A stretch of DNA of 20,313 nt, from the UHGV virus genome UHGV-0113881; one strand, given 5' to 3'. A model generated the notes under the pieces. The model had not been told where the DNA came from, did not search any database, and saw only the letters and a program-made list of their open reading frames with translations. Made by a program: the position numbers and the translations under genes. Positions within the stretch are counted from its first letter, which is position 1; every line of letters begins with the position of its first letter. This document shows positions 4,062-18,005 of this stretch, piece by piece. Origin of the DNA: a virus.

Positions 4062-4265
4062 TTATTCGCGAGCTTTGAGCATTGCGTCTGCAAACTTATA
4101 TGCAGCGCTTGCTGCATAATTAACAGCTCCATCAGAATCATTATCGATAATCGATGGATTGCTAATCATTGCTTGCATAGCCTTTGCCGCGAAGTAATCA
4201 CGTAATGTCGCATCACTTGCCATTTCTGGGCGTTTGATATCTGCTTCGTAAAACTCGCACATCAC
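4062..4265 (-). CDS. Hypothetical phage protein (67 aa)
   Basis: Track ORF in the early-left operon. Its start overlaps the stop of the upstream gene (4262..4265). Confidence 0.5.
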   Translation of the reverse strand: MMCEFYEADIKRPEMASDATLRDYFAAKAMQAMISNPSIIDNDSDGAVNYAASAAYKFADAMLKARE

Positions 4266-4558
4266 TCACCTCCCAGAGCCTTGATGATTGCTGCAAAACC
4301 TTTATTAACAGCTCCATACCATTCTGGATATGTTGTCGTTGTTCTATTTTTGGATTGCTTAAGTAATAACTGAAGTGCTTCGAGAAGGTCAGGTGCTGCC
4401 GCTATTAGATTGGCATCTTCAATGCATTGAACTTCCTCACAGATTGCAATATACGAACGCCAGCCTGCGCCATTTTCAAGAGAGTCTGCCTGGATGATTT
4501 TAATCTCATCGCCATCCATCATTATTTCCCACTTACCTTCAGTACCTTTAAATTCCAT
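4262..4558 (-). CDS. Small phage protein with Ead-like motif (98 aa)
   Basis: Track ORF with the motif EDANLIAAAPDLLEALQ preceded by KGTEGKWE, a pattern I recall from a widespread family of small early phage proteins. Confidence 0.5.
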   Translation of the reverse strand: MEFKGTEGKWEIMMDGDEIKIIQADSLENGAGWRSYIAICEEVQCIEDANLIAAAPDLLEALQLLLKQSKNRTTTTYPEWYGAVNKGFAAIIKALGGE

Positions 4559-4597
4559 GTTAGCCTCTGTTGTTTATGCCAAAAATAAAGGCCACCA

Positions 4598-4798
4598 TCA
4601 GGCAGCCTTGTTGTTCAGTTTACCAAGTTCTCTGGCAATCATTGCCGTCGTTCGTATTGCCCATTTATCGACATATTTCCCATCTTCCATTACAGGAAAC
4701 ATTTCTTCAGGCTTAACCATGCATTCCGATTGCAACTTGCATCCATTGCATCGTTTGAATTGTCCACACCATTGATTCTTATCAATAGTCGTAGTCAT
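4598..4798 (-). CDS. ral: Ral-like restriction-alleviation protein (66 aa)
   Basis: Track ORF MTTTIDKNQWCGQFKRCNGCKLQSEC..., which matches my recollection of lambda Ral (same length, same N-terminus, four-Cys cluster). It occupies the expected position just promoter-distal of N. Confidence 0.55.
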   Translation of the reverse strand: MTTTIDKNQWCGQFKRCNGCKLQSECMVKPEEMFPVMEDGKYVDKWAIRTTAMIARELGKLNNKAA

Positions 4799-4876
4799 AC
4801 GGATAGTCCTGGTATTGTTCCATCACATCCTGCGGATGCTCTTCGAACTCTTCAAATTCTTTTTCCATATCTCACC

Positions 4877-5176
4877 TCAAATAAGTGGTTTGCTGCCTAA
4901 TTTCATTTTCTGGCGACCAACACAAGTCACCCCCATTTCACTGCGTGGCTTGCGGTAGTAAATACGGTTCTGTTTACGCTCGACTTCTTCTGCCTTCTTG
5001 CAGCGAAGGCTTCCGAGTGATGCTGCTTTATCTGCTCTGACGCAACCAGAGAGCTTTAGCTCAATTTTTCGCGCCAGTCGCTGCTCTTGCATTGCCTGTT
5101 CACGTTGAGCCTGTCTGCGTGCTCTGCGGCGATTTCTGGCGTTATCGTCAGCCAGATATGTAATTACTACTGTCAT
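4877..5176 (-). CDS. N: Antitermination protein N (100 aa from the MTVV start)
   Basis: The C-terminus RKQNRIYYRKPRSEMGVTCVGRQKMKLGSKPLI matches recalled lambda N (RKNQRTWYSKPGERGITCSGRQKIKGKSIPLI). The arginine-rich motif NARNRRRARRQAQRE lies near the N-terminus. The start MTVVITY resembles P22 gp24 (MTVITYG) and has GGAGG 5 nt upstream. The track ORF 4877..5269 over-extends into the leader. Confidence 0.85.
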   Translation of the reverse strand: MTVVITYLADDNARNRRRARRQAQREQAMQEQRLARKIELKLSGCVRADKAASLGSLRCKKAEEVERKQNRIYYRKPRSEMGVTCVGRQKMKLGSKPLI

Positions 5177-5487
5177 GTTGACCTCCGATGAAACAACTTT
5201 GGAATTGATAGTGATTGCAAAGTGGTTTCTGGCCCCTCGAACTGAGGGGCAGAAAGAGCATCTCGCCACCTAATAGGTCGATGCTCGGATCGAGAGATTT
5301 AATTAACCTCGGTTTTGAAGTTATGCATTCACATAAATCCTCCTGTTGCATGTGCAGCATTGGCTGTGTTTGGCGGCTGCATTTCGCCTATGGAATTGAC
5401 TTTGGCGGTGACGCGCCGGGTGCTTATCTTCAGGTTGCCGTCGTGCAGCTGCACTTCACGTCACCCCAAAGCCAACTACTCTTTGGT

Positions 5488-5529
5488 TCCCGCATTTCGG
5501 CGGGACAATCCCATCAATGTTAAAGAGCC
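5488..5529 (-). promoter_or_regulatory. nutL: boxA (GGCTCTTTAACA) plus boxB hairpin (TCCCGC-cgaaat-GCGGGA)
   Basis: On the minus strand, boxA (5529..5518) matches the CGCTCTTTAACA consensus in 11 of 12 positions. It is followed by a hairpin (5505..5488) whose sequence is identical to the nutR boxB at 7183..7204. It lies between PL and N. Confidence 0.65.
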
Positions 5530-5574
5530 TGCCAATCTGTTCCGTTTGGCTTCCAGCGTCCTGCTGATGGCTAA

Positions 5575-5661
5575 AGAATACTGTAGGTATTTTATTGTGT
5601 AAATACCCAAGGTATTTATTTTTGGTGAAATAATGATAAGCAAATGAATACAAAGGATATT
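5575..5661 (-). promoter_or_regulatory. PL promoter with operators OL1-OL3
   Basis: Three 15-bp sites AATAC-N5-GTATT at 5577..5591, 5602..5616 and 5647..5661 (the last with an ATATT half-site). Minus-strand -35 TTTACA (5598..5603), 17-bp spacer, -10 TATTCT (5575..5580). OL1 and OL2 overlap the -10 and -35. Confidence 0.55.
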
Positions 5662-13864: not shown

Positions 13865-14068
13865 ATGTACCGTATGGACAAAATCAGAGAATGGTTCAGT
13901 TACAGCTTCGGAGGACTGACTGCGATGGGTGGCATTCTCTCCCTGAATGACTGGGCTGTCATCATTGGTATTCTTTGTACTGTCGGCACATTTGGCATCA
14001 ACTGGTACTACAAGCGCAAAGAGCGCGAGGACAGATTGAATGGCAATGTCACCGGCACTACGAAATAG
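13865..14068 (+). CDS. Class II holin (67 aa) with dual-start motif, S21 pinholin-like
   Basis: Two transmembrane helices ([17 protein letters not shown] and [20 protein letters not shown]) and a charged C-terminus. The MYRMDKI start has two Met codons flanking a basic residue, like the MKSM start of phage 21 S. The RBS is GGGGTAGAG. Confidence 0.8.
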
Positions 14069-14543
14069 CGTAATAGCGGCGATAAGTGGCGGGGCTATTG
14101 CTATAGCATCTGTGTTAATCACTGGACCAAGTGGTAACGATGGTCTGGAAGGTGTCAGCTACATACCATACAAAGATATTGTTGGTGTATGGACTGTATG
14201 TCACGGGCATACAGGAAAAGACATCATGCTCGGTAAAACGTATACCAAAGCAGAATGCAAAGCACTCTTGAATAAAGACCTTGCCACTGTCGCCAGACAA
14301 ATTAACCCGTACATCAAAGTCGATATACCGGAAACAACGCGCGGCGCTCTTTATTCGTTCGTCTACAACGTGGGCGCAGGCAATTTCAGAACATCGACTC
14401 TTCTTCGCAAAATCAACCAGGGCGATATCAAGGGCGCATGTGACCAGCTACGTCGCTGGACATACGCTGGCGGTAAGCAATGGAAAGGGCTGATGACTCG
14501 CCGTGAGATTGAGCGTGAAGTCTGTTTGTGGGGGCAGCAATGA
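14040..14543 (+). CDS. SAR endolysin (T4-lysozyme-type glycoside hydrolase, 167 aa)
   Basis: N-terminal Gly/Ala-rich signal-anchor-release segment ([19 protein letters not shown]). Catalytic triad spacing E-x8-D-x5-T in [16 protein letters not shown]. From memory it is very similar to phage 21 R. Its start overlaps the holin end. Confidence 0.85.
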
Positions 14544-14977
14544 GCAGAGTAACCGCGATTATCTCCGCTCTGGTTATCTGCATCATCGTCTGCCTGTCAT
14601 GGGCTGTTAATCATTACCGTGATAAATCCATTGCCTATAAAGAACAGCGCGATAAAGCCACGTACATCATTGCTGACATGCAGAAGCGTCAACGTGATGT
14701 AGCAGAACTCGACGCCAGATACACAAAGGAGCTTGCTGATGCTAACGCGACTATCGAAAGTCTCCGTGCTGATGTTTCTGCTGGGCGTAAGCGCCTGCAA
14801 GTCGCCGCCACCTGTGCAAAGTCAACGACCGGAGCCAGCAGCATGGGCGATGGAGAAAGCCCAAGACTTACAGCAGATGCTGAACTCAATTATTACCGTC
14901 TCCGAAGTGGAATCGACAGGATAACCGCGCAGGTTAACTACCTGCAGGAATACATCAGGACGCAATGCCTTCGATGA
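14540..14977 (+). CDS. Rz: Rz i-spanin (145 aa)
   Basis: [28 protein letters not shown] matches the recalled lambda Rz N-terminus. N-terminal transmembrane helix plus coiled-coil. Its start overlaps the endolysin stop as ATGA. Confidence 0.9.
14733..14924 (+). CDS. Rz1: Rz1 o-spanin lipoprotein embedded in the +1 frame of Rz (about 61-63 aa)
   Basis: Signal peptide with lipobox LLGVSAC, a Pro-rich mature region ([12 protein letters not shown]) and a C-terminus LNSIITVSE resembling lambda Rz1 (LNGIISPSE). It lies entirely within Rz. The start may be at 14733 or 14739. Confidence 0.8.
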
Positions 14978-15424
14978 TAGCGATAATTTTACTCATCATC
15001 CTTCACATCTGGCTCTGTAGACAGGGTGGTGATCACTTCTGGAGTGAATCCAGATTAAACATCTCATTGCTGATGCTTGATATTGAGCATCTTGCGCGCG
15101 GTAAGGGGCTGCGTTGAGATAAGAGCCAGTTCATTACAAAGCCTATCTACTGGTGGGCTTGATAATGAAACCGGAATTTATTCTGGGTAACCAGTTACGG
15201 CAGTACCGCGAAACAACCCAAGCCAGTAAGTGGGGAAATAACACTGGCAGCCACTGAAAGATGAACCTCCTGCCTTATGGCAAAAAAGATTCTTTGTGGT
15301 GGCGGACTGATGGAAAGACATCGGTTATTGCAGAGACCATTCAATGAGTGGTCTCGACAATGACTTATACCCTACACGGGATAACTTAACTGATATCCCT
15401 TTTAACGGATAAACGGAGCCAACA

Positions 15425-15667
15425 ATGGCAGAGATTATTCCCATGACTGAAGAACAGAAATTCCAGTTAGAGATTTATAAACTGGTCATGAACCAGAACG
15501 CAGCCGCAGAGGAAGCATTTCAATTCATTGGCACTGACGAGCTGAAGCTTGAGCTATTCAAAATTCACTTCCAGTCAGGCGGCGCTAATTCAGATATCAC
15601 GACCCGCACTATCGAAGCGGTGCGTAAATCGAAGGAAGCGTTAGACCTGTTCACTACCGGAGTGTAA
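15425..15667 (+). CDS. Hypothetical small acidic protein (80 aa)
   Basis: Track ORF. GGAG lies 6 nt upstream of the ATG. It is the first gene of a tightly packed three-gene cluster upstream of terS. Confidence 0.55.
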   Translation: MAEIIPMTEEQKFQLEIYKLVMNQNAAAEEAFQFIGTDELKLELFKIHFQSGGANSDITTRTIEAVRKSKEALDLFTTGV

Positions 15668-15670
15668 GAG

Positions 15671-15958
15671 ATGACTGAACAAGAAATGCCGAGATACCAG
15701 TGCCACAAAAAAGTTCGCGCCCTGAAGATTGGCTCTATAGAACATAAGCCAAACCCAGATCAGTCTGGTAAGACTGGCTCTTCTAGTTATGTGGCAATTA
15801 TTCATCCGGATGATAAGAAATACGCAGCATTTGATGTTAGCGCGGAATATATCTGTAAGCACCGACCAATGTCTGGAGGCTATTACGTTGTCTATGAGGA
15901 TGGATATGAATCATATTCTCCTGCTGAGGTATTTGAGTCTGGATATTCAAAATTATAG
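15671..15958 (+). CDS. Hypothetical protein (95 aa)
   Basis: Track ORF starting 4 nt after the previous stop. Tyr/Gly-rich C-terminal half (GGYYVVYEDGYESYSPAEVFESGY). No family recognised. Confidence 0.55.
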   Translation: MTEQEMPRYQCHKKVRALKIGSIEHKPNPDQSGKTGSSSYVAIIHPDDKKYAAFDVSAEYICKHRPMSGGYYVVYEDGYESYSPAEVFESGYSKL

Positions 15959-15967
15959 GAATCCTCT

Positions 15968-16147
15968 ATGACAAGCGTCGTTGATCTTGGTAAGGAGAAG
16001 AAATTCCCAATTACTCAAGAGCTATACGAGAGGCTGGAAAGCGTCATCCATGATTACGATGGTGAAATCAGTTTATGCGAGGCGATTGGCACACTCGAAT
16101 TGCTGAAGCAGTCACTGATTGAAGGCGCGAAAGAGTCCTCAACCTGA
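15968..16147 (+). CDS. Hypothetical small protein (59 aa)
   Basis: Hand-translated ORF MTSVVDLGKEKKFPITQELYERLESVIHDYDGEISLCEAIGTLELLKQSLIEGAKESST. AGGAA lies upstream. It is below the track cutoff. Confidence 0.45.
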   Translation: MTSVVDLGKEKKFPITQELYERLESVIHDYDGEISLCEAIGTLELLKQSLIEGAKESST

Positions 16148-16170
16148 AATAACAACTAAGTGAGATGAAT

Positions 16171-16593
16171 ATGGCGACTGAACCAAAAGCTGGTCGCCCC
16201 TCTGATTATATGCCGGAGGTGGCTGACGATATCTGCTCGTTGCTTTCTTCTGGCGAAAGTTTGCTGAAAGTATGTAAGCGTCCTGGTATGCCGGATAAGT
16301 CCACTGTTTTCCGCTGGTTGGCAAAGCATGAGGATTTTCGCGACAAGTACGCGAAGGCAACTGAGGCACGAGCTGATTCTATTTTCGAAGAGATATTCGA
16401 AATTGCTGACAATGCGATTCCAGATGCTGCTGAGGTGGCAAAGGCAAGACTTCGCGTTGATACCCGCAAATGGGCGCTGGCCCGAATGAATCCCCGTAAG
16501 TATGGCGACAAGGTAACTAACGAGCTTGTCGGTAAGGACGGCGGCGCAATTCAGATTGAAACATCACCGATGAGCACTCTATTCGGAAAATGA
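16171..16593 (+). CDS. terS: Terminase small subunit (140 aa), Sf6/P22-like headful type
   Basis: MATEPKAGRPSDYMPEVADDICSLLSSGESLLKVCKRPGMPDKSTVFRWL matches my recollection of the Sf6-type small terminase. Track ORF starts at 16165 (MNMATEPK); the ATG at 16171 is preferred. The terL start overlaps its stop. Confidence 0.85.
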   Translation: MATEPKAGRPSDYMPEVADDICSLLSSGESLLKVCKRPGMPDKSTVFRWLAKHEDFRDKYAKATEARADSIFEEIFEIADNAIPDAAEVAKARLRVDTRKWALARMNPRKYGDKVTNELVGKDGGAIQIETSPMSTLFGK

Positions 16594-18005
16594 CCTCGAT
16601 TAATCCTATCTTTGAACCGTTCATTGAGGCGCATCGCTACAAAGTTGCCAAAGGCGGTCGAGGTAGCGGTAAGTCATGGGCAATTGCGAGGCTGCTTGTT
16701 GAAGCGGCGCGTCGGCAGCCTGTGCGTATTCTCTGCGCTCGTGAACTGCAAAACAGTATCAGCGATTCGGTAATCCGGTTGCTTGAAGATACCATCGAGC
16801 GTGAAGGGTATTCGGCTGAGTTTGAAATTCAGCGTTCAATGATTCGTCATTTCGGAACGAATGCTGAATTCATGTTCTACGGCATAAAAAACAACCCGAC
16901 GAAGATTAAATCGCTCGAAGGCATTGATATCTGCTGGGTGGAAGAAGCGGAAGCGGTAACGAAGGAATCATGGGATATCCTGATACCAACCATCCGCAAG
17001 CCATTTTCCGAAATATGGGTGAGCTTTAACCCGAAAAACATCCTCGACGATACCTATCAGCGATTCGTCGTAAATCCTCCAGATGATATTTGCCTGCTGA
17101 CGGTGAACTACACCGACAACCCGCACTTTCCTGAAGTTCTCCGTCTGGAGATGGAAGAGTGTAAACGCAGAAATCCGACACTGTATCGTCACATCTGGCT
17201 TGGTGAGCCAGTAAGCGCAAGTGATATGGCAATCATCAAACGTGAATGGCTTGAAGCCGCAACCGATGCGCACAAGAAACTCGGATGGAAAGCGAAAGGC
17301 GCTGTTGTCTCTGCGCATGATCCATCAGATACAGGGCCAGATGCTAAAGGTTATGCATCGCGTCACGGTTCGGTAGTTAAGCGCATTGCCGAAGGTCTGC
17401 TGATGGACATCAACGAGGGGGCTGACTGGGCTACTTCGCTGGCGATTGAAGACGGTGCTGACCACTACTTGTGGGATGGTGATGGTGTCGGTGCAGGGCT
17501 ACGCAGACAGACAACGGAAGCGTTCTCCGGCAAGAAAATCACCGCCACGATGTTCAAGGGCAGTGAATCGCCATTCGATGAAGATGCGCCGTATCAGTCC
17601 GGAGCTTGGGCTGATGAAGTCGTACAGGGCGACAACGTTCGCACTATTGGCGATGTATTCCGCAATAAGCGAGCGCAATTCTATTACGTGCTGGCTGACA
17701 GGCTGTATCTGACATATCGGGCGGTTGTCTATGGGGAGTATGCAGACCCCGACGACATGCTGAGTTTCGACAAAGAAGCGATAGGCGAGAAGATGCTGGA
17801 GAAGCTGTTTGCAGAACTTACGCAGATTCAGCGCAAATTCAATAATAACGGGAAGCTGGAGCTTATGACTAAGGTCGAAATGAAGCAGAAGCTCGGTATT
17901 CCATCTCCTAACCTGGCTGATGCGCTGATGATGTGTATGCATTGCCCGGAGTCGGCTGCGCAACCCGACTATTCCAGTTACTCAATTCCTTGTGGTGTAG
18001 GTTGA
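16590..18005 (+). CDS. terL: Terminase large subunit (471 aa)
   Basis: Walker A KGGRGSGKS near the N-terminus, an ATPase domain and a C-terminal nuclease domain, typical of Terminase_3-type large subunits. Its start overlaps the terS stop as ATGA. Confidence 0.9.
   Translation: MTSINPIFEPFIEAHRYKVAKGGRGSGKSWAIARLLVEAARRQPVRILCARELQNSISDSVIRLLEDTIEREGYSAEFEIQRSMIRHFGTNAEFMFYGIKNNPTKIKSLEGIDICWVEEAEAVTKESWDILIPTIRKPFSEIWVSFNPKNILDDTYQRFVVNPPDDICLLTVNYTDNPHFPEVLRLEMEECKRRNPTLYRHIWLGEPVSASDMAIIKREWLEAATDAHKKLGWKAKGAVVSAHDPSDTGPDAKGYASRHGSVVKRIAEGLLMDINEGADWATSLAIEDGADHYLWDGDGVGAGLRRQTTEAFSGKKITATMFKGSESPFDEDAPYQSGAWADEVVQGDNVRTIGDVFRNKRAQFYYVLADRLYLTYRAVVYGEYADPDDMLSFDKEAIGEKMLEKLFAELTQIQRKFNNNGKLELMTKVEMKQKLGIPSPNLADALMMCMHCPESAAQPDYSSYSIPCGVG

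Follow-up and report, generated by a model that had tools for sequence, protein, structure and literature searches.

In a prophage of the Sf6/HK620-like (P22-like) type, the three small genes directly upstream of the small terminase gene are a conserved pair of P22 genes, orf80 (ORF1) and orf59c (ORF3), between which a separately mobile gene (ORF2) has been inserted. ORF2 encodes a spike-less remote homologue of the OB domain of Dec, the decoration protein of phage L. We hold these gene identities and the mosaic organization of the cluster with high confidence. All three genes would be co-transcribed with the late operon and would act as independent accessory genes rather than as one machine, with ORF2 serving as a soluble ligand binder; for this reading as a whole we estimate a probability of about 50%. 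The window is the whole stretch of DNA analyzed, 20,313 nt of the virus genome UHGV-0113881, and all positions refer to it.

Organization of the three-gene cluster

The features of the cluster and its right border are collected in Table 1. The preliminary description had presented three tightly packed genes, each with its own ribosome-binding site, and both the coordinates and the sites bear this out: the gaps are 3 nt between ORF1 and ORF2 and 9 nt between ORF2 and ORF3, and purine-rich Shine-Dalgarno-like sites can be read directly in front of each ATG (GGAG 6 nt before that of ORF1, GGAG 9 nt upstream of that of ORF2 and AGGA 7 nt upstream of that of ORF3). That the ORFs are real genes is confirmed by full-length PHROG matches for all three (E between 1e-41 and 1e-53) and by dN/dS values of 0–0.45 for ORF1 (0.03–0.45 against distant alleles), 0.08–0.19 for ORF2 (against alleles 69–87% identical) and 0.06–0.42 for ORF3. 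All three are under purifying selection.

Table 1 Features of the cluster and its right border (positions in the window)
Feature	Position	Strand	Description
ORF1	15425..15667	+	80 aa, ATG start; DUF2560 family, corresponding to P22 Orf80, HK620 HkbM and Sf6 gp67
ORF2	15671..15958	+	95 aa, ATG start, TAG stop; stand-alone, spike-less OB-fold domain of the Dec type (phage L)
ORF3	15968..16147	+	59 aa, ATG start; corresponding to P22 Orf59c, HK620 HkbN and Sf6 gp68
Inserted module	15663..15988	+	Last ORF1 codon, whole ORF2, spacer and first 7 ORF3 codons; from DNA alignment
ORF2 TAG stop and 9-nt spacer	15956..15967	+	ORF2 and ORF3 share a reading frame; read from the sequence
Small terminase subunit, Sf6 type	16165..16593	+	Pfam PF20901 (Sf6_terminase), E=7.8e-45; phrog_1482; right border of the slot

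The cluster occupies the right end of a variable slot that extends from the lysis genes to the small terminase gene (terS), whose ORF starts at 16165 and contains an Sf6 gp1-like Met at 16171. Comparison of gene content showed that the same slot in relatives holds genes for Rha, KilA-N, Gp49-family, GIY-YIG, HNH, HslV-like, HExxH and Dec proteins, in agreement with the earlier proposal that cargo accumulates between the lysis and packaging genes. A scan of positions 14900–16700 detected neither promoter-like nor terminator-like sites on the coding strand, and a Rfam scan of positions 14900–16300 returned nothing beyond chance.

The P22 gene pair and the ORF2 insertion

ORF1 is a member of the DUF2560 family, matching PF10834 with 147.7 bits (cut-off 25) over profile positions 1–72 of 72, and falls into phrog_571; DUF2560 was the sole match in Pfam, NCBIfam and PADLOC profile scans. 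The protein is 98.7% identical to P22 ORF80 and 100% identical over 79 aa to its HK620 and Sf6 counterparts, from which the gene differs by seven synonymous and no non-synonymous changes, and it resembles all three in length and position without any material difference. ORF1 (pI 4.7) is predicted to be an acidic four-helix protein (AF2 model, pLDDT 86.5), and a Foldseek comparison of this model with the PDB gave a best match no better than E=3 and no functional lead.

ORF3 is assigned to the Orf59c/HkbN family by a match to phrog_3546 over residues 1–59 of 59 (E=7.9e-42), and its position directly upstream of terS, shared with P22 Orf59c, HK620 HkbN and Sf6 gp68, also fits. It equals these proteins in length and is ~90% identical to them (89.8% to P22 orf59c, 91.5% to HK620 hkbN). 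The family is narrow, comprising only 72 clusters, nearly all of them >70% identical, and judging by the mostly enterobacterial names of its members it is confined to enterobacterial phages. Pfam and NCBIfam scans of ORF3 gave no match, and a PADLOC scan gave only a chance-level match to JetB (E=0.013 over 23 residues). ORF3 is acidic (pI 4.5) and probably forms a helical hairpin, as judged from its sequence pattern alone. Together, ORF1 and ORF3 are the small, acidic and phage-lineage-restricted orf80/orf59c pair of P22. The impression that none of the three genes can be recognized by function stands, no function being known for any of them.

In P22, HK620 and Sf6 the homologues of orf80 and orf59c are adjacent and ORF2 is absent; ORF2 is therefore an insertion between them. 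Its borders were mapped by DNA alignment with HK620, Sf6, Bas106 and Dewey, and E. coli genomes that lack ORF2 become homologous again from query position 319 (window position 15989) onwards. The first seven codons of ORF3 belong to the ORF2-bearing module, and the protein begins with MTSVVDLGKE in place of the VSRVINLGKE of P22 and HK620. ORF2 has a GC content of 41.3%, compared with 45.7–50% for its neighbors, and is a separately mobile, lower-GC insertion. ORF3 is missing beside the ORF2 relatives of Dewey and of Citrobacter and Morganella prophages, and in Bas106, which carries ORF2 and ORF3, all that is left of ORF1 is its 3' end. Among E. coli prophages the linkage of ORF2 and ORF3 is constant, and natural fusions of the two (158 aa) exist in which the TAG stop is changed to GAG or CAG. 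The C-terminal extensions of two distant relatives, P0036 and P0054, seemed ORF3-like by eye; a recurrent ORF2–ORF3 architecture was nevertheless rejected, as the only matches of an ORF3 profile are the five stop-loss fusions from E. coli, all nearly identical.

With two genes forming a conserved P22 pair and the third moving separately, the cluster is not the compact unit that had been suggested. We consider it highly improbable that it is a toxin–antitoxin-like pair or a compact defence unit encoded by the prophage, which had been among the initial suggestions. The genes are indeed small, acidic and tightly packed in a known cargo slot, and one ORF2 relative, in Cronobacter prophages, forms an opposite-strand cassette between terminator-like hairpins together with a two-TM protein and could be expressed from the prophage (a Rfam scan of this cassette found nothing beyond chance). 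Like the replication-module location of other family members, this cassette is typical of accessory or moron genes. The genes of the cluster, however, occur separately, so that co-occurrence is not obligatory; they match no toxin, antitoxin or defence model in PADLOC, Pfam or NCBIfam; their strand carries no promoter- or terminator-like site; and the obligate pairing, domains and own promoter of type II toxin–antitoxin systems are not found. Moreover, P22 deleted for orf25–orf80 and retaining orf59c is viable both as lysogen and as phage (PMC11016777; bioRxiv 10.1101/2023.08.15.553423).

The same deletion bears on the possibility that ORF1 and ORF3, and perhaps ORF2 with them, assist DNA packaging as accessory factors acting with the downstream small terminase. 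Such a role would fit the genomic position well, since ORF3 abuts terS in P22, HK620, Sf6, Bas106 and the window, the complete trio adjoins terS in 37 of 37 close loci, and in other phage types a relative of ORF2 is frequently found immediately ahead of terS or TerL. Yet P22 without orf80 grows normally, the gene being dispensable for lytic growth and lysogeny (bioRxiv 10.1101/2023.08.15.553423; PMC11016777), and in Dewey, Citrobacter prophages and ST64T the place of ORF3 is taken by other genes. The identical trio also precedes two unrelated terminase types, and a specific protein–protein partnership is therefore unlikely. The lysis–terminase junction is simply a site of cargo accumulation, and we regard a packaging function as very unlikely.

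ORF2 and the capsid decoration protein Dec

ORF2 matched no Pfam, NCBIfam or PADLOC profile, and single-sequence searches of PDB sequences gave nothing meaningful. The A1 profile matched Dec when compared with PDB sequences; hhalign aligned ORF2 and Dec across the whole OB domain with 79% probability (E=1.6e-5), a 256-sequence profile of the ORF2 family scored Dec at 16.5 bits, and Dec was the best structural match of ORF2. The two proteins share the core motifs A-L-x-I, P-x-x-G-G-Y and F-E-x-x-Y (Dec of phage L/ST64T, PDB 6E3C; Newcomer et al. 2019, PMC6449081). Pantoea phage PdC23 gp07 provides an intermediate that scores 57 bits with the ORF2-family profile and aligns with Dec without gaps. 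ORF2 thus has an N-terminal OB-fold homologous to Dec residues ~10–89 and is a remote homologue of the Dec OB domain, the sequence E-values alone being marginal.

This homology raises the question whether ORF2 is itself a Dec-like decoration or cementing protein, made late and, as Dec does at quasi-three-fold sites, binding and stabilizing mature heads, with ORF3 perhaps supplying the oligomerization that the spike supplies in Dec. The genomic context is compatible with this possibility: the close phage L relative ST64T carries dec in the slot that ORF2 occupies here, with 3 nt separating the gene from terS downstream, and the late-operon setting of ORF2 is interrupted by no promoter- or terminator-like site on its strand. 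The constant, in-frame linkage of ORF2 and ORF3 in E. coli prophages and their occasional 158-aa fusion recall the Dec layout of an OB domain followed by a C-terminal extension. Furthermore, PdC23 gp07, whose gene directly follows the major capsid gene, may be a real head protein, and the ORF2 homologue of GP4 (gp05) is encoded in the head module, flanked by the genes for the portal and the major capsid protein.

The features through which Dec binds capsids are, however, missing from ORF2. Dec has a C-terminal three-stranded spike (residues ~90–134) that makes the trimer and is needed for capsid binding, Dec1-98 alone failing to bind virions (PMC11398494), whereas the last residue of ORF2 is the one that aligns to Dec A89. 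The capsid-contact residues of Dec, K30, Y31 and Y49 (site 1) and Y71 and E73 (site 2) (PMC6449081), align to E24, H25, D55, D77 and Y79 of ORF2, so that none of the five is kept, although this comparison is to be read with caution, the coat protein encoded here being of another type. Nor is the gene tied to one capsid type, as would be expected of a Dec-like decorator: ORF2 alleles ≥96% identical are found with an Sf6-type head module at 17 loci and with a P22-type module at 20. Between these divergent modules TerL shows no detectable similarity and the portals are 32% identical; it is established that the coat type follows the TerL/portal type. Across phages with unrelated capsids the family is 50–60% identical, and homologues 50–56% identical occur in HK97-like, BPP-1-like, GP4-like, P1-like and jumbo phages. 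Other members carry a Tad2 or Acb2 domain in fusion or are located in replication modules. The GP4 head resolved at 3.7 Å contains gp2 and gp1 only, and the gp05 homologue is absent from it (PMC9698820). Finally, P22, HK620 and Sf6 carry ORF3 without ORF2, and no distant family member has an ORF3-like extension.

Because ORF2 has neither a trimerizing spike nor the contact residues of Dec and is not linked to any one type of capsid, we lean towards its being a soluble binder and not a capsid cement, and judge a decoration role to be unlikely. The outcome that the preliminary description had named as fatal to its proposals, conserved virion-associated genes with a structural role, applies to ORF2 by half: the protein is remotely related to a virion protein and lacks what that protein requires for capsid binding.

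The ORF2 family and known phage systems

ORF2 belongs to a family of at least 4,900 clusters at 50% identity for which we found neither a Pfam model nor a publication, and a literature search on DUF2560, hkbM/hkbN, orf59c, Dec-like proteins and Bas106 found no functional study. The Tyr/Gly-rich C-terminal half of the protein, pointed out at the outset, proved to be a genuine signature: residues 48–95 contain eight Tyr and four Gly, and this stretch corresponds to the most conserved motif of the family, GGYYVVYEDGYxSYSPAxAFExGY. A second, invariant motif, MPRYQCHK, is located at the N-terminus and is missing from Dec. The invariant residues of the protein are Y9, K13, K19, H64, Y71, Y75, D77, Y79, S81, S83, F88 and Y92. 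An assignment of the Tyr/Gly motif to the Gp49 family (Pfam Phage_gp49_66; N4 gp49/Sf6 gene 66) was rejected, since hhalign with Sf6 gp66 gave a probability of 0.9% and no family member matches PF13876 within the OB domain. Gp49 is a frequent neighbor or fusion partner of the ORF2 family.

Strictly conserved motifs rich in Tyr, His and Lys in phages with unrelated virions suggest a soluble binder. The ligand of ORF2 would be conserved and not part of the virion, be it a host factor that is itself conserved or a small molecule derived from a nucleotide, and the protein would most plausibly belong to the host-interaction or counter-defence repertoire of the phage. Terminase, portal and lysis genes are among the commonest Pfam families in a census of flanking ORFs at 31 non-redundant viral loci, and a virion-related role is therefore possible.

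The initial proposal of a defence or anti-defence unit fared differently in its two parts. The defence unit is contradicted by the lack of any matching PADLOC defence model. The anti-defence part gains support for ORF2 only, and only by association, in that other members of the family occur in fusion with full domains of the Tad2-like type (PF11195, 76 bits) and of the Acb2/Tad1 hairpin type (PF24729, 42 bits), and gp12 of the P1-like phage Ro157c2 consists of an ORF2 domain and DUF2829. ORF2 itself matches no such model; it has no Pfam match, and Tad1, Tad2 and Acb2 are not among the PDB fold matches listed. Similarly, no anti-defence family was recognized among the 25 commonest flanking Pfam families at the 31 viral loci, which comprise packaging, lysis, replication and DUF genes instead. 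The fusions may reflect no more than small accessory genes lying side by side and then losing a stop codon, since this demonstrably happens with ORF2 and ORF3. We therefore put forward a counter-defence role of ORF2 only tentatively. It is rather doubtful that the family as a whole makes up a widespread and hitherto unrecognized class of counter-defence proteins of phages that use the Dec-type OB-fold, such as sponges or inhibitors of a conserved immune signal or host factor, with Dec as an exaptation that acquired a trimerizing spike in the same P22-like slot.

For the cluster as a whole these results change little, as two of its three genes are long-known P22 ORFs described as dispensable and the slot was already known to collect cargo. 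ORF2, by comparison, links Dec, the sole structurally characterized relative, to a phage protein family that is very large but has neither been named nor studied, and shows that in most cases the Dec-type fold lacks the spike to which Dec owes its role as a capsid cement. Caution is advisable where labels such as 'Dec' or 'capsid decoration protein' are copied onto family members in annotations. As a candidate for a new function in host interaction or counter-defence, ORF2 can also be tested easily in tractable E. coli phages, of which Bas106 carries the gene and HK620 and Sf6 do not.

Among known systems, the Tad2 (DUF2829) and Acb2/Tad1 sponges, which sequester cyclic-nucleotide or ADPR-derived immune signals, are, like ORF2, small, soluble and widely mobile phage accessory proteins; they share neither sequence nor fold similarity with it, so that the likeness is a lead only and not a sign of membership. 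PdC23 gp07, annotated as 'Dec protein OB-fold', is a clear member of the ORF2 family (80 aa, OB domain only, spike-less) that, unlike ORF2, has no MPRYQCHK motif and is more Dec-like. The genes for Dec and ORF2 both lie in the late operon of a P22-like phage, after a DUF2560 gene and upstream of the small terminase gene. Dec looks like a specialized offshoot of the ORF2 family that gained its spike in the same genomic slot, which offers a plausible evolutionary origin for this decoration protein.

Layout of the slot upstream of the terminase genes

The window, a prophage of the Sf6/HK620 type among the P22-like phages (Lederbergvirus), carries in succession lysis genes, a 50-aa ORF, a stretch of ~300 nt, three small genes (ORF1, ORF2 and ORF3, together the trio) and the genes for TerS, TerL and portal. 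The preliminary description had located the trio exactly, and we confirm its spacers of 3 and 9 nt and, from the sequence, a ribosome-binding site for each gene (GGAG or AGGA, 6–9 nt 5′ of each start codon). It was also right that this slot is variable, since gene content differs among relatives, which carry Rha, KilA-N, Gp49-family, GIY-YIG, HNH, HslV-like or HExxH genes, or Dec, the capsid decoration protein of phages L and ST64T.

Features of the window between the lysis genes and the terminase genes
Feature	Position	Remarks
Holin, endolysin, Rz/Rz1	13865-14977	lysis genes
50-aa ORF, Sf6-gp65-like	14965-15117	overlaps Rz end; full-length phrog_11822 match
Stretch of ~300 nt without long ORF	15118-15424	between 50-aa ORF and ORF1
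28-aa ORF	15277-15363	within the ~300-nt stretch
Terminator-like hairpin	15287-15266	minus strand, 5′ of ORF1
ORF1	15425-15667	80 aa
ORF2	15671-15958	95 aa
ORF3	15968-16147	59 aa
Small terminase ORF	start 16165	followed by TerL and portal; all Sf6-type

Because no promoter-like or terminator-like site was detected on the strand of the trio from 14900 to 16700, the trio would most simply be part of the late transcript; late antitermination is established for P22-like phages. The lack of such sites, together with the lack of a PADLOC match, speaks against the earlier proposals of a defence unit or a toxin–antitoxin pair.

Several further features of the slot were observed. The 50-aa ORF has a hydrophobic N-terminus; phrog_11822 is the Sf6 gp65 family, and ORFs of this type are kept beside the spanin gene in many relatives. 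The stretch 5′ of ORF1, which P22-like phages conserve, includes the 28-aa ORF (MAKKILCGGGLMERHRLLQRPFNEWSRQ), whose ST64T counterpart is fused in frame to DUF2560 (p48, 118 aa); fusions of this type probably explain many database gene calls of 102–129 aa for DUF2560. P22 carries the opposite-strand pid moron between orf25 and orf80, whereas this stretch of the window contains no pid-sized ORF. An HExxH protein of ~125 aa (HECAH or HEACH), which has no Pfam match, recurs in the slot (ST64T p49 at 23069–23458 of locus L008; 5300–5671 of locus L012) and adjoins Dec in ST64T and an ORF2 homologue in Citrobacter prophages.

Identity and mosaic arrangement of the three genes

All three ORFs are real genes, since they are under purifying selection and have full-length matches to PHROGs, all of unknown function. 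ORF1 differs from its HK620 and Sf6 counterparts by seven synonymous and no non-synonymous changes, and dN/dS amounts to 0.08–0.19 for ORF2 (against alleles 69–87% identical) and 0.06–0.42 for ORF3. ORF1 and ORF3 are already-known, uncharacterised P22 genes. ORF1 belongs to the DUF2560 family (147.7 bits), with 98.7% identity to P22 ORF80 and 100% over 79 residues to both HK620 HkbM and Sf6 gp67; ORF3 shares 89.8% identity with P22 Orf59c and 91.5% with HK620 HkbN. The P22 order is orf80, orf59c, gene 3, and HK620 and Sf6 are alike. Both families are narrow: DUF2560 is present in 179 phage records, most of its matches bearing names from E. coli and Salmonella and others from Shimwellia and Serratia, and the ORF3 family comprises only 72 clusters, nearly all >70% identical, and 45 phage records. 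The AlphaFold model of ORF1 shows four confidently predicted helices (pLDDT 86.5) for which we found no structural neighbour in the PDB. Both proteins are acidic (pI 4.7 for ORF1, 4.5 for ORF3), and neither yielded a clue to its function. A role as packaging factors, also suggested earlier, is disfavoured: the same trio precedes both Sf6-type and P22-type modules, and deletion of orf25–orf80 in P22 yields viable phage (PMC11016777).

ORF2 is an insertion between ORF1 and ORF3. DNA alignment shows that the ORF1 stop of HK620 and Sf6 runs directly into ORF3; relative to these phages, an extra segment (~15663–15988) is present in the window, as in phage Bas106, and is composed of the last ORF1 codon, the whole of ORF2 and a variant of the first seven ORF3 codons. 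The GC content of ORF2 (41.3%) lies below that of both neighbours. ORF3 occurs in 159 of 5,426 complete E. coli genomes, ORF2 together with ORF3 in only 49; in E. coli prophages ORF2 is always accompanied by ORF3. The trio is not an obligate unit, because (i) ORF1 is reduced to a 3′ remnant in Bas106, (ii) in Dewey, ORF1 and a 67%-identical ORF2 are followed by an HslV-like gene in place of ORF3, (iii) Citrobacter prophages have ORF1, ORF2 and then the HExxH protein, and (iv) a Morganella HK97-like prophage carries the ORF2 homologue alone, with lysis genes on one side and an HNH/terS pair on the other. The full trio is present in each of the 37 IMG/VR loci with an ORF2 at least 96% identical (L018–L053, L058, L098) and is followed by Sf6-type terS/TerL in 17 and by the P22 gp3 type in 20. 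Two packaging modules behind one trio imply a recombination junction between ORF3 and terS.

ORF1 alleles of 78–79% identity are also found beside the same ORF2, implying a second junction between these two genes. ORF2 codon 41 (15791–15793) encodes Val in the window and Gly (SYGAxI) in most aligned relatives. The closest ORF2 alleles differ from the window by no synonymous and 1–4 non-synonymous changes, which may reflect relaxed selection in resident prophages.

ORF2 and ORF3 lie in one reading frame, with nothing but TAG and 9 nt (15956–15967) between them. Natural ORF2–ORF3 fusions, in which TAG has become GAG or CAG, are represented by five database proteins of 158 aa, of which one comes from an intact prophage. 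A diverged pair at locus L078 (ORF2 87%, ORF3 71% identical) keeps frame, TAG and spacer.

Relationship of ORF2 to the OB-fold domain of Dec

ORF2 has no match in Pfam, NCBIfam, PADLOC or PDB sequences. Its family is very large: a word-indexed search returned 442 matches, and an exhaustive search of 1.84 billion representatives returned 4,913 clusters at E ≤ 1e-3 and 3,103 at E ≤ 1e-10; members occur in 562 IMG/VR contigs. Two invariant blocks, MPRYQCHKxVxALKI and KHxPxxGGYYVVYxDGYxSYSPAxAFExGY, flank a variable loop. The 4,188-aa database protein P0190 gives 28 separate matches to profile positions 66–91 and is presumably an unrelated Tyr/Gly repeat protein; the GGYYVVYEDGY-type motif alone can thus yield spurious profile matches.

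From profile searches, hhalign, Foldseek, an intermediate sequence and a shared slot, we conclude that ORF2 and the OB-fold domain of Dec are remotely homologous. Against PDB sequences, the family profile found Dec at E = 0.81, and a 256-sequence profile at 16.5 bits and E = 0.068 in the same search space. In hhalign, ORF2 6–95 pairs with ST64T Dec 10–90, the whole OB domain (79% probability, E = 1.6e-5). The AlphaFold model of ORF2 (pLDDT 81) has Dec (PDB 6E3C) as its sole Foldseek match at E ≤ 1e-3, with a TM score of 0.62 and 24% identity. In sequence, Pantoea phage PdC23 gp07 (80 aa) links the family to Dec: it reaches 57 bits with the ORF2 profile, and its alignment to Dec 11–86 needs no gaps. 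The dec gene of ST64T occupies the same slot as ORF2, after a DUF2560 gene and 3 nt upstream of terS.

Cement protein or binder of another ligand

ORF2 is probably not a Dec-type cement, as it lacks three testable defining features of Dec. Dec has a C-terminal spike, whereas ORF2 ends at the end of the OB domain; Dec1–98 folds yet fails to bind virions, the spike being required (PMC11398494). The Dec residues in contact with coat protein, K30, Y31, Y49, Y71 and E73 (PMC6449081), pair in hhalign with E24, H25, D55, D77 and Y79 of ORF2. Furthermore, the near-identical trio is joined to two different head-assembly modules whose portals are 32% identical and whose TerL proteins show no detectable similarity.

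Homologues of 50–56% identity that keep the invariant motifs are encoded by phages whose virions are unrelated (Ralstonia GP4, Morganella HK97-like and Cronobacter BPP-1-like prophages, P1-like and jumbo phages), and other family members lie in replication and nucleotide-metabolism modules. In L016, a Cronobacter prophage (4100–5600), the homologue is on the strand opposite TerL and portal, with a strong terminator-like hairpin on either side (4964–4980 and 5309–5328). Here, ~900 nt 5′ of the gene contain only short, spurious-looking ORFs and no called gene, its 3′ neighbour is a 61-aa two-TM protein, and Rfam gave nothing significant in the region. A surface that stays so well conserved in phages with such dissimilar capsids speaks for a conserved ligand outside the virion. 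The main rival, a Dec-like virion role, draws on the position of the GP4 homologue gene inside the head module and of spike-less PdC23 gp07 (L101 3971–4213) directly downstream of the major capsid gene; the latter, annotated 'Dec protein', may be a genuine head protein. The GP4 head at 3.7 Å contains gp2 and gp1 only, with no sign of gp05, the ORF2 homologue (PMC9698820), and we consider such a role for ORF2 distinctly improbable.

ORF2 is probably a soluble OB-fold protein that binds a conserved ligand other than the capsid and acts in host interaction or counter-defence, the counter-defence part being tentative and rather doubtful. Fusion partners of the OB domain among 64 longer family members are crAss001_48-like (7), Gp49-family (4), Tad2-like (3), Acb2/Tad1 hairpin (2) and DUF551 (2) domains and several more that each occur once; the matches to Tad2-like and Acb2/Tad1 domains exceed Pfam thresholds. 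Gp12 of the P1-like Escherichia phage vB_EcoM-Ro157c2YLVW (L100 3480–4157; 225 aa), adjoining ssb, combines an ORF2-type OB domain with a Tad2-like (DUF2829) domain; we take its position to be that of the P1 isaA/isaB gene interrupted by IS1. Since phages use Tad2 and Acb2/Tad1 as sponges for bacterial immune signals, the fusions tie ORF2 to counter-defence by association. This association is weak, because loss of a stop codon between adjacent small genes suffices to create a fusion, as in ORF2–ORF3. We recognised no anti-defence family among the commonest Pfam families of flanking ORFs at 31 viral loci, and a fold search of the PDB found no resemblance of ORF2 to a solved sponge structure.

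As a cluster the trio is ordinary, but its middle gene makes a large, unstudied family accessible to simple experiments, for which tractable E. coli phages exist. ORF2 should not carry a decoration-protein annotation, though relatives are already so labelled; it is best filed as a Dec-type OB-fold without spike, and it suggests where Dec came from.
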